Source of the DNA: a virus
Taxonomy: Duplodnaviria; Heunggongvirae; Uroviricota; Caudoviricetes
Direction: 5' to 3' (one strand)
IMG/VR virus record: IMGVR_UViG_2667527789_000018
Coordinates: 1 to 31,427 of that record
DNA: 31,427 bases
Under the pieces are notes generated by a model, which made no database searches, was not told the DNA's origin, and saw nothing but the letters and a program-made list of their open reading frames with translations. The translations under genes were made by a program, and so were the position numbers. The first letter of the stretch is position 1, and each line of letters begins with the position of its first letter. Shown in pieces: positions 1 to 31,427 of the stretch.

Positions 1-1011
1 TTATAACGTCACTCCGCCTTTTAGTGGATTCAGAGCGACGGCATTTTGCAGATAGTCAGGCGCAAGGTGCGCATAGGCCATCGTCTGCTGAATGCTCGCA
101 TGTCCCAGAATCTGTTGCAGTGCGATTATATTGCCCCCATTCATCATGAAATGGCTTGCGAATGTATGCCGCAGGATGTGGGTTGCCTGATTGGGTGGTA
201 TATCAGGTTTCACTCTGCGTAAAATCCCGCAAAATTTCTCATAATCAACTTTGAATAATTTGGCGCTGGCCTCCTCTTTAACTTTTTTCTCCAGTTCCTC
301 AGAAATCGGCACGGTTCGCTTTTTACCGTTTTTGGTTTTCAGGAAGGTAACCCTGCAATTTGTAATCTGTGCTGGTTTTAGCGTGGCAACTTCCGTCCAT
401 CTTCCTCCAGTGCTCAGACATAAAAGCGCGACAAGTAAGTCATCACCAGCCAAAACATTTAACAGTTTTTCGATTTCTGCTTTTTCCAGGAACGTCATTT
501 CAGGGTTGGCCTCCGCCAGTGGCGGCAGTCCGTGAATTGGGTGTTGCCCGGAAAATTCATCCAATTGAATTAATTTTGTGAACATGCCGGATAATCTGTA
601 CATGTCACGGTTTATCGTTGAGGCACTGATACCATCACGTAGTCGCATGGAACGATAATCCATCAAAGCCCTTTTGCTCATCCTGCTCACTGGTATATCA
701 CCTATGCCGCTGATGGTTTTGAGTAGATGATTAAACTCTTTTGTTCCATGCTCGTGGTTTTGCCCGTGATATTTCCACCAGATGTCCAGCAACTCACTCA
801 AAGTCCGGCGGTCTGCTCGCTGGCCTCCCCATTCTTTCTGACTGGCATTGGCGATTGTGTATCGCTCAAATGCTAGTGCTTCAGCTTTTCTTTCGAATTT
901 CCTGCGGATGCGTTTTCCGTCGCGACCGCGAGGTCTAATGTCCACTTCATAGCGACCATCATCGAGCTTCTTAATTGCCATAAGAAAGCCCTCCGGCGCT
1001 GTATTCACCAT
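1..1011 (-). CDS. int: tyrosine integrase (P2 Int family)
   Basis: 336-aa ORF ending at a TAA whose complement is bases 1-3; C-terminal tyrosine-recombinase-like region (HILRHTFASH...GHASIQQTMAYAHL); located at prophage end beside repressor. An alternative ATG at 981 (MAIKKLDDGRYEV) has a better SD (GGAGGG), so the true start may be 981. Confidence 0.9.
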   Translation of the reverse strand: MVNTAPEGFLMAIKKLDDGRYEVDIRPRGRDGKRIRRKFERKAEALAFERYTIANASQKEWGGQRADRRTLSELLDIWWKYHGQNHEHGTKEFNHLLKTISGIGDIPVSRMSKRALMDYRSMRLRDGISASTINRDMYRLSGMFTKLIQLDEFSGQHPIHGLPPLAEANPEMTFLEKAEIEKLLNVLAGDDLLVALLCLSTGGRWTEVATLKPAQITNCRVTFLKTKNGKKRTVPISEELEKKVKEEASAKLFKVDYEKFCGILRRVKPDIPPNQATHILRHTFASHFMMNGGNIIALQQILGHASIQQTMAYAHLAPDYLQNAVALNPLKGGVTL

Positions 1012-5895: not shown

Positions 5896-7734
5896 ATGAG
5901 CGAGTTCGATGTTTTTTCTATTTCAGTTGATGATTTTAAAAAAAGTGAGTACGCCAGTATATTGTTACCACCAAGAAGCCATTCTTATTTTGAAATGGAA
6001 TCTTATTTTTTTCAGTTGTTGTCATTTTATAAGCAAAAAAAAGATGTGAGTTCTTGGAGGGTTTGCTATTTATTACGTTCGTTATTTAGTTTAAAATTTT
6101 CTAAGTCTGGTGATATTATCGACTTTGAGTCTAAAATCATTCTCTATCCTAAGCGAGGTTATAGACCTTCAGATTACAAGGATAATTATTTAACCATATT
6201 AACTTGTATTAAAGAAAATACTGACAACCCTTATATTATATCTAGGGTGTGTGATGTTTTATGGATAAATAACCGTAAGGATATAGATTCTGCTAATAAA
6301 GCAATAGAGTCATATGCTCTAATGATTAATGATGCTTGTGATACTTTGTTAGAAAAAAAGGAATCAGGTGACATCCATGTTTTTGATGTCGTTGACTGCT
6401 TGGATAGAGGTATTACAATATCGCGCATGCTTATTGGCAGGAAAAAACAACTGCAAGGAGGGATAGTTGACTCGACGTTAAGGCTATATCATATATTAAT
6501 AGATTCTAGTATATTTATCGGTGTTTTAAGAATTTCTGAAATTCTTTATAAGAATAATTTATTGTGCCCCTTACAATTGGCTAAGAATGCAGAAAAGATA
6601 GCTGATGAGCATTGTGGAGCTTCTTATTTTGATGCTGTGAAAAAATTGTTTTATTTTGCGTCTGAATTATATGTTAAAAATGATATGGAAGAGCAAGGAA
6701 GAAGGTGCAAAATGAAAGCGACAGAAATAACATTGGCTCAATTTGAACAGTCTTCATCTCCAACATTGAAGGCTCATTGGCTAAGAGTTGCTCTTGGGGA
6801 ATTTAGAGCGATTGGTGGAATGAGTGAAAGGATTAAAGAGATTAAAGAGGAATTAAATTCTATTCGAGATCAAATCAATGATGAAATGTATTCCTTTGCA
6901 ATACCAATGGATCTTAGTGATGTTATCGCTCAGAAAGAGCATATTTATAATCAATTAAATTTCTCAGAAATAATTAAAAAATTAATCTCTAGATTTAAGG
7001 TTGTAAGTGCCAGTGAGATTATGGAAAGAGCTCGCTCTGATGCTAAGAGATATTTTTTTGTTAATGTGAGTGATACGGTTTTTTATGATGACAGAGGACG
7101 CGTTGTGGCAAGGCAACCACCTTTAGATTCTGCTGGGGATATAAGTCTAGATGATGCCTGTGTAAATTATTTAAGAACTAGTAATATTGAGCATCAGTTT
7201 TATGTTTATGGTGAGTTTGAAGTTGTTAGGCAAAGAGTGTTGTCTAGGTATTCATTAAATGAGAATACATTTGACCCAATCTCACAACAAAGTCTATTTG
7301 TTCCTCCTGGGTATGCGGAAATATTTTCTTTAGGATTTCTTAAGCTTTGGCAGGGGGATTATGTGTCTGCCTGTTATTTGTTGTTGCCGCAGTTGGAGAA
7401 TTCAATTAGATGGATTTTAGAATTAAGAAGAAAAGAAACAACGAAAATAGATGTGTCACTTTTTGAGGAGGCTACTAGTCTATCTCAAATGCTTGCAAAT
7501 TATAAGAGTGAAATGGAAGGTATTTTTGGGAGTGATCATGTATTGACTATGGATTTATTGTTCAATATGAAAGGTGGTGCTGCAATTAGACACACGATGG
7601 CTCATGGCAGGTATACTGTAAATCATTGTTATCAACCAACTTCAGTTTTTGCCTGTGTCTTTATCTTTTATTTAACTTGTTTGCCTTTATTTAGTGTATG
7701 GGAAGATAAAGTTGAACCTTATCTGACTGATTAA
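5896..7734 (+). CDS. AT-rich accessory (cargo) protein of unknown function, 612 aa; candidate anti-phage defence protein
   Basis: ATG 5896 preceded by AGGTGAGGA; about 32% G+C in a 60-nt sample versus about 57% in phage genes; occupies the tin/old position of P2; no P-loop; C-terminal R-x4-H motif (AIRHTMAHGRY). Confidence 0.8.
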   Translation: MSEFDVFSISVDDFKKSEYASILLPPRSHSYFEMESYFFQLLSFYKQKKDVSSWRVCYLLRSLFSLKFSKSGDIIDFESKIILYPKRGYRPSDYKDNYLTILTCIKENTDNPYIISRVCDVLWINNRKDIDSANKAIESYALMINDACDTLLEKKESGDIHVFDVVDCLDRGITISRMLIGRKKQLQGGIVDSTLRLYHILIDSSIFIGVLRISEILYKNNLLCPLQLAKNAEKIADEHCGASYFDAVKKLFYFASELYVKNDMEEQGRRCKMKATEITLAQFEQSSSPTLKAHWLRVALGEFRAIGGMSERIKEIKEELNSIRDQINDEMYSFAIPMDLSDVIAQKEHIYNQLNFSEIIKKLISRFKVVSASEIMERARSDAKRYFFVNVSDTVFYDDRGRVVARQPPLDSAGDISLDDACVNYLRTSNIEHQFYVYGEFEVVRQRVLSRYSLNENTFDPISQQSLFVPPGYAEIFSLGFLKLWQGDYVSACYLLLPQLENSIRWILELRRKETTKIDVSLFEEATSLSQMLANYKSEMEGIFGSDHVLTMDLLFNMKGGAAIRHTMAHGRYTVNHCYQPTSVFACVFIFYLTCLPLFSVWEDKVEPYLTD

Positions 7735-7914: not shown

Positions 7915-8083
7915 TGCGCGCTGGCGGTGGTGCTGATTTTATTTTTTCAGCGTCTGAGCGCGTCGTGACGGCGTTTAGATTGTTCGCCGGGGCGTTGGAG
8001 TGTCTGCGGGGTGTTTTGTGCGGTGGTGAGCGTGTGAGGGCGTGATGACGGGGTGTAAAAAAGCCGCCCGCAGGCGGCGATGT

Positions 8084-9118
8084 TCAGCCGTTGTCAGTGT
8101 CCAGTGAGTAGTTTTTAAAGCGGATGACCTCCTGACCGAGCCAGCCGTTTATTTCCCGAATTCTGTCCTGTAACGGGATAAGCTCATTGCGGACAAAGAC
8201 CTTTGCCACTTTCTCAATATCTCCCAGTGACCCGACGTTCTCCGGCTTGCCGCCCATCAACTGAAAGGGGATACGGTGCGAGTCCAGCAGGTCAGCGGTG
8301 CTGGCTTTTTTGATATTAAAAAAATCGTCCTTCGTTGCCACTTCACTGAGCGGGATAATTTTAATGCCGTCGGCTTTTCCCTGCGGGGCATAGAGAAACA
8401 GATTTTTAAAGTTGTTGCGGCCTTTCGACTTGACCATGTTTTCGCGAAGCATTTCGATATCGTTGCGATCCTGCACGGCATCAGTGACGTACATGATGTA
8501 TCCGGCATGTGCGCCGTTTTCGTAATACTTGCGGCGGAACAGCGTGGCTGACTCATTCAGCCAGGCAGAGTTAAGGGCGCTGAGATATTCCGGCATGCCG
8601 TACAGCTCCTGATTAATATCCGGCTCCAGCAGATGAAACACGGAGCCGGGCGCGAAGGCTGTCGGCTCGTTGAAGGACGACACCCACCAGTAAACATCCT
8701 CCTCCACGCCACGGCGGGTATATTTTGCCGGTGAGGTTTCCAGTCTGATGACCTTACCGGTGGTGCTGTAACGCTTTTCCAGAAACGCATTACCGAACAC
8801 CAGAAAATCCAGCACAAAGCGGCTGAAATCCTGCTGAGAAAGCCACGGATGCGGAATAAACGTTGAAGCCAGAATATTGCGTTTAACGTAAATCGGCGAG
8901 CTGTGATGCACGGCAGCACGCAGGCTTTTTGCCAGACCGGTAAAGCTGACCGGTGGCTCATACCATCTGCCGTTACTGATGCACTCGACGTAATCCAGAA
9001 TGTCACGGCGGTCGAGAACCGGCACCGGCTCGCCAAAGGTGAATGCCTCCATTTTCGGTGCACTGGCGGTCATTGTTTTTGCCGCAGGTTGCGGTGTTTT
9101 CCCTTTTTTCTTGCTCAT
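8084..9118 (-). CDS. Q: portal protein gpQ
   Basis: 344 aa (P2 Q length as recalled); leftward operon Q-P next to cos; start ATG overlaps P stop (ATGA on minus strand). Confidence 0.9.
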   Translation of the reverse strand: MSKKKGKTPQPAAKTMTASAPKMEAFTFGEPVPVLDRRDILDYVECISNGRWYEPPVSFTGLAKSLRAAVHHSSPIYVKRNILASTFIPHPWLSQQDFSRFVLDFLVFGNAFLEKRYSTTGKVIRLETSPAKYTRRGVEEDVYWWVSSFNEPTAFAPGSVFHLLEPDINQELYGMPEYLSALNSAWLNESATLFRRKYYENGAHAGYIMYVTDAVQDRNDIEMLRENMVKSKGRNNFKNLFLYAPQGKADGIKIIPLSEVATKDDFFNIKKASTADLLDSHRIPFQLMGGKPENVGSLGDIEKVAKVFVRNELIPLQDRIREINGWLGQEVIRFKNYSLDTDNG

Positions 9119-15405: not shown

Positions 15406-15831
15406 ATGAAGAAATTATCCCTTTCACTGATGCTGAACGTGTCGCTGGCGCTGATGCTGGCACTGTCCCTGATTTACCCGCAGAGCGTGGCCGTCAGTTT
15501 TGTCGCTGCCTGGGCGATTCTGGCGACGGTTATCTGTGTGGTTGCCGGTGGTATCGGCGTGTATGCCACTGAGTATGTGCTGGAACGCTACGGGCGGGAG
15601 CTGCCGCCGGAATCGCTGGCCGTGAAGATTGTCACGTCGCTGTTTTTGCAGCCAGTGCCGTGGCGCAGACGGGCGGCGGCTCTGGTGGTGATGGTGGCGA
15701 CGTTTATCTCGCTGGTCGCTGCCGGGTGGATTTTTACCGCGCTGATTTATCTCGTGGTATCGGTGTTCTTCCGGCTGATACGTACGGCCTGCCGTCAGCG
15801 TTTTGAGGTGCGGGAACCATGTCAAAGCTGA
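15406..15831 (+). CDS. lysA: lysis-timing membrane protein LysA
   Basis: 141-aa polytopic hydrophobic protein after the endolysin; GGAG SD. Confidence 0.85.
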   Translation: MKKLSLSLMLNVSLALMLALSLIYPQSVAVSFVAAWAILATVICVVAGGIGVYATEYVLERYGRELPPESLAVKIVTSLFLQPVPWRRRAAALVVMVATFISLVAAGWIFTALIYLVVSVFFRLIRTACRQRFEVREPCQS

Positions 15832-16244
15832 TGATTGTGCTGGTTGTGTTGTTATCACTGGCGGTGGCCGGTCTGTTTCTGGCGAAGCATGAAAACGCCA
15901 GCCTGTGCGCCTCACTGGACAGGGCGAACAACGTTGCCAGTGAACAGCAGACGACCATCACCATGCTGAAAAATCAGCTTCATGTTGCCCTCACCAGGGC
16001 AGACAAAAACGAGCTGGCGCAGGTTGCACTGCGTCAGGAGCTGGAGAACGCCGCGAAACGTGAAGCACAGCGCGAGAAAACCATCACGAGGTTACTTAAT
16101 GAAAACGAAGATTTTCGCCGCTGGTACGGCGCTGACCTGCCTGATGCTGTGCGCCGGTTGCACCAGCGCCCCGCCTGCGCAGACGCCAGTGATTGTCGCC
16201 AACGCCTGCCCGAAAGTGAGCCTTTGCCCGATGCCGGGCAGTGA
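15819..16244 (+). CDS. lysB: Rz-like inner-membrane spanin LysB
   Basis: 141 aa with N-terminal transmembrane helix (LMIVLVVLLSLAVAGLFLA) and charged helical periplasmic region. Confidence 0.85.
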   Translation: MSKLMIVLVVLLSLAVAGLFLAKHENASLCASLDRANNVASEQQTTITMLKNQLHVALTRADKNELAQVALRQELENAAKREAQREKTITRLLNENEDFRRWYGADLPDAVRRLHQRPACADASDCRQRLPESEPLPDAGQ

Positions 16245-16389
16245 CCCGCAGAAGAACGGCGATTTAAGTGCCGATATCCGGCAGCTTGAGAACGCGCTGG
16301 CACGCTGTGCCAGCCAGGTAAAAATGATTAAACACTGTCAGGACGAAAACGATGCTCAAACCCGACAGCCTGCGCAGGGCGCTGACTGA
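16099..16389 (+). CDS. lysC: Rz1-like outer-membrane lipoprotein spanin LysC, embedded in +1 frame of lysB
   Basis: ATG 16099 with GAGG SD; signal peptide and lipobox (LMLCAGC|TS), Pro-rich mature part; 96 aa; overlaps the lysB 3' end and the R start. Confidence 0.8.
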   Translation: MKTKIFAAGTALTCLMLCAGCTSAPPAQTPVIVANACPKVSLCPMPGSDPQKNGDLSADIRQLENALARCASQVKMIKHCQDENDAQTRQPAQGAD

Positions 16390-16819
16390 TGCCGTCACGG
16401 TGCTGAAAACCAGTCCAGAGATGCTTCGGATATTCGTGGATAACGGGAGTATTGCCTCCACGCTGGCGACGTCGCTGTCGTTCGAAAAGCGTTACACGCT
16501 CAATGTCATTGTGACCGACTTTACCGGTGATTTTGACCTGCTCATCGTGCCGGTGCTGGCGTGGCTGCGGGAAAATCAGCCCGACATCATGACCACCGAC
16601 GCAGGCCAGAAAAAGGGCTTCACGTTTTATGCGGACATCAACAATGACAGCAGCTTTGATATCAGCATCAGCCTGATGCTGACTGAGCGCACGCTGGTCA
16701 GTGAGGTGGACGGCGCGCTGCATGTGAATAATATCCCGGAACCCCCGCCGCCGGAGCCGGTCACCCGCCCGGTGGAGCTTTATATCAATGGTGAACTGGT
16801 GAGTAAGTGGGATGAATGA
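16352..16819 (+). CDS. R: tail completion protein gpR
   Basis: 155 aa; position lysC-R-S as in P2. Confidence 0.85.
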   Translation: MLKPDSLRRALTDAVTVLKTSPEMLRIFVDNGSIASTLATSLSFEKRYTLNVIVTDFTGDFDLLIVPVLAWLRENQPDIMTTDAGQKKGFTFYADINNDSSFDISISLMLTERTLVSEVDGALHVNNIPEPPPPEPVTRPVELYINGELVSKWDE

Positions 16820-22762: not shown

Positions 22763-23356
22763 ATGTTTACTAAGCGACGATTAAAAAATATTAACTGGGA
22801 GGCAAGTTCAGTGATTCTTGCTATGGTTCTCTTTGTTGGAAATATATTTTATACAAATCATCGTGATGATATAAACATGGAGGCTGAGAGAGACAGTATC
22901 AGAACAATGTTTGCATATGAAATCGCTAATAACCATCGCGCTCTCACTTTTCTTGATAAAACGAGACATATTGGCTTTGACGAAAATTCGGAGCATTTTG
23001 TTGGCGAGCCTTTTGCCATTAATGTCAAATCATTAGGGGGACCTCGCTTACAGATTGCATTAAACCAGACTGATAAAGTGTTTAAATCCTACTTCGGCGA
23101 ATTAAGTAAGCTTGATAAAGAGGATGTTACTCTTCTTATGGACTATTACCATGAGCAAAGCATCCTGCTGGAGCGTGTAAAATCTACGTTACAGAAGATG
23201 AAAAGTGGTAATGATATTAAAGTTGATATTGATGGTTACTTATTAGAAGAACACTTCATGAATGAGCTTAATCTTTCTAATATATTGCTTAAACGCTATA
23301 GCTATTTATTATCACAACACGCTAAAGAACATAAAACAAAAGATTTACATAATTGA
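22763..23356 (+). CDS. AT-rich accessory membrane-anchored protein, 197 aa, in the Z/fun hotspot; candidate superinfection-exclusion or defence protein
   Basis: About 32% G+C in a 60-nt sample; N-terminal hydrophobic helix (SSVILAMVLFVGNIFY) then a charged soluble domain; occupies the G-FI intergenic slot where P2 carries Z/fun. Confidence 0.7.
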   Translation: MFTKRRLKNINWEASSVILAMVLFVGNIFYTNHRDDINMEAERDSIRTMFAYEIANNHRALTFLDKTRHIGFDENSEHFVGEPFAINVKSLGGPRLQIALNQTDKVFKSYFGELSKLDKEDVTLLMDYYHEQSILLERVKSTLQKMKSGNDIKVDIDGYLLEEHFMNELNLSNILLKRYSYLLSQHAKEHKTKDLHN

Positions 23357-30524: not shown

Positions 30525-31427
30525 ATGAATCAATCTTATGGACGGCTGGTCAGTCGGGCGGCGATTGCTGCGACGGCGATGGCTTCGCTGCTATTGCTGA
30601 TTAAAATTTTTGCATGGTGGTATACCGGGTCGGTGAGTATTCTCGCCGCGCTGGTGGATTCGCTGGTGGATATCGGCGCGTCGTTGACGAATTTATTGGT
30701 GGTGCGATATTCCCTGCAACCTGCCGACGATAATCACTCGTTTGGTCACGGTAAAGCTGAGTCCCTCGCGGCGCTGGCGCAAAGTATGTTTATCTCCGGT
30801 TCGGCACTATTCCTGTTTTTGACGGGTATTCAACATCTGATATCTCCAACACCGATGACAGATCCAGGCGTCGGGGTTATCGTGACAATTGTGGCGCTAA
30901 TTTGTACGATTATCCTTGTCTCGTTTCAGCGTTGGGTGGTGCGGCGGACGCAAAGCCAGGCGGTGCGGGCTGATATGCTACATTACCAGTCTGATGTTAT
31001 GATGAACGGCGCAATTCTGCTGGCGCTGGGGTTGTCCTGGTACGGCTGGCATCGCGCCGATGCTCTGTTTGCATTGGGAATCGGCATCTATATTTTATAT
31101 AGCGCGTTACGCATGGGATATGAGGCGGTACAGTCATTACTGGATCGCGCATTGCCTGATGAGGAACGGCAAGAAATTATTGATATCGTGACTTCCTGGC
31201 CGGGTGTTAGCGGCGCTCACGATCTTCGCACGCGGCAGTCAGGGCCGACCCGCTTTATTCAGATTCATTTGGAAATGGAAGACTCTCTGCCTTTGGTTCA
31301 GGCACATATGGTGGCGGATCAGGTAGAGCAGGCTATTTTACGGCGTTTTCCGGGATCGGATGTAATTATCCATCAGGACCCCTGTTCCGTCGTACCCAGG
31401 GAGGGTAAACGGTCTATGCTTTCATAA
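30525..31427 (+). CDS. fieF: cation diffusion facilitator ferrous-iron/zinc efflux transporter FieF (YiiP)
   Basis: 300 aa from ATG 30525 ([25 protein letters not shown]...), recognised as enterobacterial FieF; CDF-type [10 protein letters not shown] motif; the tracked ORF begins at upstream TTG 30507. Confidence 0.92.

Follow-up and report, generated by a model that had tools for sequence, protein, structure and literature searches.

The region at 15819-16389 almost certainly comprises the lysB and lysC genes of a P2-like (Peduovirus) prophage, which together specify a two-component spanin and have the "overlapped" gene arrangement. Here, "the window" denotes the whole stretch of DNA analysed (31,427 nucleotides), and all coordinates refer to it. 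The gene pair, its frame relation, the lysC start and the role of the products are already known, such that this is a correct rediscovery for which curated family models exist. The biological import is therefore small, and the practical value lies in annotation.

Genomic Setting of the Lysis Region

The window as a whole corresponds to a P2-like (Peduovirus) prophage and aligns without gaps over its full length, at 99.7% identity, with a prophage in Escherichia coli RM11911. This counterpart runs from the integrase gene to ogrK, with the host gene fieF at the end, and the genes of interest are named lysB and lysC there. Given that the integrase gene lies at the start of the window (1-981, minus strand) and host fieF occupies its final ∼900 nt (30525-31427, plus strand), the window consists of the prophage through ogrK plus flanking chromosome. 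Neither an RNA gene nor a tRNA gene was returned for the whole window by a tRNA scan and an Rfam scan at gathering thresholds. Of 5426 complete E. coli genomes, 1609 (about one-third) contain a match to the segment 15819-16389. The lysis region shares 95-98% identity with Peduovirus genomes, including P2, Wphi, pro483, fiAA91-ss, L-413C and many others, and ∼72% identity with the 186/PSP3 group.

Two further loci in the prophage were recorded. A gene at 5896-7734 (plus strand) lies inside a low-GC island (31-41% GC) with the replication gene on one side and the portal gene on the other. Its product is 612 aa long, contains a DUF7380 domain (Pfam E 2.5e-26) and matches PDC-S39, a candidate defence system in PADLOC (E 1.4e-73). 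This gene, carried by the prophage, probably has an anti-phage role. The spot between the replication and portal genes is presumably that occupied by old in P2. A 197-aa ORF at 22763-23356 (plus strand), annotated as "hypothetical protein" in RefSeq, is situated within a low-GC stretch at 21-24 kb (41-44% GC) and has a tail-fibre assembly gene and the tail sheath gene as neighbours, an interval that we take to be the variable Z/fun cargo locus of P2-like phages; searches of Pfam and PADLOC gave no match for this ORF.

Organization of the Lysis Cassette

The cassette and the adjoining tail gene lie on one strand between 14613 and 16819 in the order Y-K-lysA-lysB-lysC-R (Table 1). The end of lysA and the start of lysB share 13 nt; lysA is described as "nonessential; affects timing of lysis" in the P2 record and is named an antiholin in PMC3091744. 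The endolysin gave no Pfam or NCBIfam match at E ≤ 0.01, and it also matches an unnamed PHROG family (E 1.5e-112).

Table 1. Coordinates of lysis-region features in the window and the evidence for each assignment
Feature	Position	Strand	Evidence
Holin, P2 Y homologue, first cassette gene, 93 aa	14613..14894	+	Pfam PF04550 Phage_holin_3_2, E 2.6e-42; Y/holin in P2 and Wphi annotation
Endolysin, P2 K homologue, 165 aa	14894..15391	+	PHROG 90 endolysin, E 2e-70; RefSeq "glycoside hydrolase family 24 protein"
lysA, putative antiholin, 141-aa membrane protein	15406..15831	+	NCBIfam NF038378, E 8e-35
lysB, i-spanin (inner-membrane subunit, Rz-like), 141 aa	15819..16244	+	TIGR03495 phage_LysB, E 1.7e-50; PHROG 89 Rz-like spanin, E 3.9e-60
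lysC Shine-Dalgarno GAGG	16088..16091	+	Read from sequence; 7-nt spacer to ATG 16099-16101
lysC, o-spanin (outer-membrane lipoprotein subunit, Rz1-like), 96-aa precursor	16099..16389	+	NF038368, PF23793, PHROG 456
lysB/lysC dual-coding segment, 146 nt: LysB C terminus plus LysC signal peptide and linker	16099..16244	+	
Predicted LysC lipoprotein signal peptide, residues 1-20	16099..16158	+	Hydropathy and charge: n-region K2, K4; h-region 5-20; lipobox L-C-A-G
LysC Cys21 codon, predicted lipid-attachment residue	16159..16161	+	Invariance among homologues
lysC-only segment, 107 nt, residues ∼50-84, conserved C-terminal half	16245..16351	+	
8-bp perfect hairpin GCTGGCAC-GCT-GTGCCAGC in lysC-only segment, just 5' of R	16296..16314	+	
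R, tail completion gene	16352..16819	+	Pfam PF06891 P2_Phage_GpR, E 1.8e-44

The original prediction placed the lysC start at the ATG at 16099, opening a 96-aa frame at +1 relative to lysB behind an upstream GAGG, and had the gene run past the lysB stop into the start of R. Direct reading of the sequence agrees with each of these points: the frame ends at the stop codon 16387-16389, 145 nt beyond the lysB stop, and its final 38 nt are shared with R. As lysC starts inside lysB out of frame and ends past its stop, the pair has the "overlapped" two-component architecture. An "embedded" o-spanin gene lies wholly inside the i-spanin gene, which is not the case for lysC, and a RefSeq note on lysC likewise reads "not fully embedded". 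P2 LysB/LysC is named as a paradigm spanin pair, and P2 as the "overlapped" example, in PMC6139136 (Fig. 1b legend). Given that this pair is the published type example of its class, "embedded" is imprecise and "overlapped" is the correct term; that the arrangement is a textbook feature, as had been stated, is borne out by its publication (PMC6139136 and PMC3091744).

The position of the hairpin at 16296-16314 is labelled "putative transcription attenuator; O operon" in the P2 record. When support for an attenuator or terminator was sought, the hairpin was found to be without a U-tract, was missed by a terminator scan and had an ordinary folding energy (z = -0.27).

The proposed identity of both products as spanin subunits was confirmed by family models. 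LysC scored 125.4 bits (cut-off 27, E 7.6e-37) against the NCBIfam model NF038368, "Rz1-like lysis system protein LysC" (P2_Rz1 equivalog), with residues 4-88 aligned to profile positions 1-85 of 85, and 56.1 bits (cut-off 27, E 3.4e-15) against Pfam PF23793 LysC. It also matched PHROG 456 (E 3.4e-30), and PHROGs assigned spanin families to LysB and LysC alike. LysB scored 170.8 bits against TIGR03495, for which the cut-off is 92.75.

Predicted Lipoprotein Features of LysC

The LysC precursor reads MKTKIFAAGTALTCLMLCAGC/TSAPPAQTPVIVANACPKVSLCPMPGSDPQKNGDLSADIRQLENALARCASQVKMIKHCQDENDAQTRQPAQGAD, and the 76-aa mature protein continues with TSAPP after Cys21. A signal peptide with the lipobox LMLCAGC had been predicted, and this motif is found at residues 15-21. 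A basic n-region, an h-region in which residues 5-20 include no charged residue, and a lipobox with an invariant Cys directly preceded by Ala-Gly are all present, with one caveat at position -3. Here, the lipobox LCAG/C carries a Cys and so does not match the strict consensus [LVI][ASTVI][GAS]C; the relatives of LysC have Leu or Phe at this position. Several working non-consensus lipoboxes are documented in PMC6139136, and LCAG is accepted as a lipobox in the curated spanin table of that study.

Two patterns, one a strict regular expression for the lipobox and the other resembling PROSITE PS51257, were also tried as detectors. Both miss LysC on account of the Cys at -3, and the PS51257-like pattern gave 9 spurious matches elsewhere in the window. 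The lipoprotein call therefore rests on conservation and on curated models. Under a relaxed rule for lipoprotein-type N termini, 2 of the 877 start-codon candidates in the window (start codons with at least 50 aa downstream) passed, the 16099 ORF being one of the two.

In Lol sorting, lipoproteins without Asp at position +2 after the lipid-modified Cys proceed to the outer membrane. LysC has Thr rather than Asp at +2 and Ser at +3, and would on this basis be sorted to the outer membrane. Eight of the 76 mature residues are proline (10.5%), the longest run being PP, and no penta-proline stretch is present in LysC. Seven of these prolines fall within the first 30 mature residues. The sequence following the lipobox, described as Pro-rich in the original prediction, is thus only moderately so, and far less than lambda Rz1. 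A low-confidence single-sequence AlphaFold model of LysC (pLDDT 50) includes a possible C-terminal helix. Neither a meaningful match nor a relative of solved structure was obtained when the PDB was searched with the LysC and LysB sequences.

LysB and the Cys30 Allele

The only hydrophobic segment of LysB is near its N terminus (residues 4-22; mean Kyte-Doolittle hydropathy 2.99), and its single-sequence AlphaFold model is one long helix (residues 2-103, pLDDT 77). The protein is thus modelled as one N-terminal membrane helix followed by a long helical periplasmic domain. Each of the features that define an i-spanin was found for LysB: its score exceeds the TIGR03495 cut-off, its only predicted transmembrane helix is N-terminal and its periplasmic domain is modelled as helical.

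Codon 30 of lysB (15906-15908) specifies Cys in the window and Arg in P2. The aligned residue at 91 other loci is Arg in 80, Ser in 6, Lys in 2, and Gln, Thr and a gap in one each, with Cys in none; among the matches listed, Cys30 is common to six fully identical E. coli records. As a result, this LysB has three periplasmic cysteines (residues 30, 120 and 126) instead of two, a number reported for 9 of 526 i-spanins in Table 8 of PMC6139136. A membrane-proximal Cys30 could change how the spanin complex forms its Dsb-dependent disulfide bonds and hence the efficiency or timing of lysis, an effect that we consider very unlikely; the Arg30-to-Cys change is most likely a neutral polymorphism.

Conservation of the lysC Frame

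The lysC frame was compared across 91 loci, comprising annotated phages of Escherichia, Salmonella, Klebsiella, Erwinia, Yersinia and Shewanella together with 80 viral contigs. At every one of these loci the frame is open from a Met aligned with Met1, and 73 distinct protein variants are represented. Conservation in related phages, one of the two points on which the original prediction had been made to depend, is therefore complete in this set; the other, a lipoprotein-type signal, is likewise seen in LysC, such that neither of the outcomes named as refuting the prediction was observed. Cys21, Cys37, Cys43, Cys70 and Cys80 are kept in all 91 loci. The same five residues, together with Gly9, Leu15 and Asn53, are invariant in an alignment of 11 diverse LysC homologues with identities down to 21%, which were drawn from annotated phage loci and from the PMC6139136 supplement (Fels-2, KS14 and HP2).

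In the lysC-only segment, close relatives vary at 11 of 36 third codon positions as compared with 9 of 71 first and second positions (Fisher p = 0.035). Comparison of this segment with the 186 group gave dN/dS values of 0.06-0.31 in the lysC frame, with stop codons in the other two frames. The lysC-only segment is thus under purifying selection, and in the lysC frame only. For the dual-coding 146 nt, dN/dS against the 186 group was <1 in both the lysB and the lysC frames. Among close relatives, variation in these 146 nt falls mainly at the third codon position of lysB, equivalent to the second of lysC, and this fits the extent to which amino acids are seen to vary in the LysC signal peptide and in the linker just after Cys21.

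The lysC Start Codon and Alternative Readings of the Frame

The window is GC-rich and contains many long alternative-frame ORFs, such that the length of the lysC ORF is in itself uninformative and the +1 frame might in principle be a chance open frame without a protein product. We give this reading no credence, given the strong matches to NF038368, PF23793 and PHROG models, the frame that stays open at 91 of 91 loci, and the purifying selection on the unshared 107 nt where the other two frames carry stops. A different possibility is that lysC is a real gene translated from an internal codon, either Met16 (ATG 16144, 81 aa) or Met45 (ATG 16231, 52 aa), in which case the product would be a soluble cytoplasmic protein and not a lipoprotein. 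Database practice lends this some weight: the RefSeq start is the 16144 equivalent in all four E. coli records inspected, one of which is identical to the window here, and only the last 52 codons are annotated in pro483, Klebsiella phage ST147-VIM1phi7.1, Midge, EtG and MDG45, one of these five records naming the product "holin". However, ATG 16144 has no Shine-Dalgarno sequence (upstream ...GACCTGCCTG), whereas the GAGG 7 nt before ATG 16099 is conserved; among 86 upstream contexts listed for relatives, 78 have GAGG and 8 have GAGA. Of the 11 homologues, 3 have Leu or Thr in place of Met16, while residues 1-15 (M-K-x-K and the hydrophobic run) are conserved, and the curated LysC model NF038368 aligns from residue 4. 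Initiation at Met16 would remove the signal peptide and leave the invariant Cys at position 6. Moreover, the 96-aa start is the one used in the P2, Wphi, 186 and PSP3 records and in the curated spanin table of PMC6139136, the supplement of which lists fiAA91-ss with the same Shine-Dalgarno sequence ("cacGAGGTtactta"), the same start, a signal of 20 aa, LCAG as the lipobox and 4 cysteines in a mature protein of 76 aa. Translation from an internal start is on these grounds very improbable. The evidence favours ATG 16099 and a 96-aa product, and since the 81-aa and 52-aa versions are both without the signal peptide, the 16099 start is the sound one.

The 81-aa RefSeq version, the 52-aa calls in five records and the omission of lysC from others (fiAA91-ss, L-413C, S164 and YenM_201.16) uphold the further claim that gene callers often miss this gene, as does PMC6139136. 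PHROG 952, a 62-position profile that matches LysC residues 36-96, appears to have been built from truncated lysC calls. Given the Met16 starts, 52-codon calls and omissions, database entries for LysC are often without the defining signal peptide, and such signal-less entries would escape prophage screens in which N-terminal signals are used to find spanins or lipoproteins.

Proposed Function of LysB and LysC

Nearly all spanin experiments have been performed on lambda Rz/Rz1 (PMC6139136), and the mechanism of LysB/LysC is therefore proposed by analogy plus family membership, following the lambda paradigm as summarised in that study. LysC, once exported, would receive its lipid at Cys21, be processed by signal peptidase II and reach the inner leaflet of the outer membrane. 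The C-terminal part of LysC would bind the periplasmic C terminus of LysB, itself anchored in the inner membrane, to give a complex that crosses the periplasm through the peptidoglycan mesh and links both membranes. Disulfide bonds may stabilise this complex. Once the holin and endolysin had removed the peptidoglycan, the complex would fuse or disrupt the outer membrane as the last step of lysis.

In the historical annotation of P2, LysB and LysC are instead regulators of lysis timing and not part of the machinery of outer-membrane disruption. The P2 record still labels lysB/lysC "nonessential; affects timing of lysis" and "regulation of lysis", and the Wphi record has "lysis control protein". 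Direct biochemical work on LysB/LysC was not found in the literature searched. In lambda, Rz/Rz1 spanin mutants look "non-essential" when cultures are shaken and no divalent cations are added, which accounts for the older label of P2 lysB/lysC. A role restricted to timing is also at odds with the predicted topology of an inner-membrane helix protein paired with an outer-membrane-type lipoprotein, and curated family names and the specialist literature (PMC6139136 and PMC3091744) treat LysB/LysC as the P2 spanin pair. We accordingly regard the regulatory role as extremely improbable and retain the assignment of LysB/LysC as a two-component spanin.

Comparison with Known Spanin Systems

The lambda Rz/Rz1 pair resembles LysB/LysC in having periplasmic cysteines and in its place at the end of the lysis cassette. 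By contrast, the lambda pair is embedded, whereas here lysC passes the lysB stop by 145 nt. Mature LysC (76 aa, 10.5% Pro, no penta-proline) is longer than lambda Rz1 and has four conserved cysteines as compared with one. LysC shows neither the sequence similarity nor the central penta-proline of the lambda Rz1 sequence family; there is no detectable sequence similarity, and no lambda Rz1 or Rz family was reported in the Pfam and NCBIfam search at E ≤ 0.01. P2-like LysC proteins contain ∼9.5-9.7% Pro as compared with 26% in a lambda-like Rz1 (PMC3091744), and the value for the window LysC agrees with the former.

The LysB/LysC pairs of the P2-like Burkholderia phages KS14 and KL3 (PMC3091744) are further counterparts. 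They are overlapped, with lysC starting ∼160 bp before the lysB stop, and their LysC proteins have a predicted cleavage site between residues 20 and 21, a mature Pro content of ∼9.5% and cysteines that align with those of the window LysC. They differ in their lower identity (∼33%) and in that lysC enters R by only 8 bp, as compared with 38 nt here.

The closest likeness is to P2 itself (NC_001895), in which lysB (7922-8347) and a 96-aa lysC (8202-8492) are arranged as in the window. The comparison with P2 lysC that had been suggested as a check showed the same layout, and only point substitutions separate the two pairs: 5 of 96 residues differ in LysC and 8 of 141 in LysB, the notable change being LysB Arg30 to Cys. 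The P2 lysC gene starts within lysB in the +1 frame and stops in R (PMC3091744), and genetic evidence that it is an Rz1 homologue is attributed in PMC3091744 to Markov et al. (2004). Wphi is listed in Table S4 of PMC6139136 with a 146-nt overlap in frame +1, as in the window. The pair in the window shares with those of P2, Wphi, fiAA91-ss and 186/PSP3 the gene order, the lengths (141 and 96 aa), the +1 frame, the 146-nt overlap, the Shine-Dalgarno sequence, the start, the LCAG/C lipobox and the four periplasmic cysteines.
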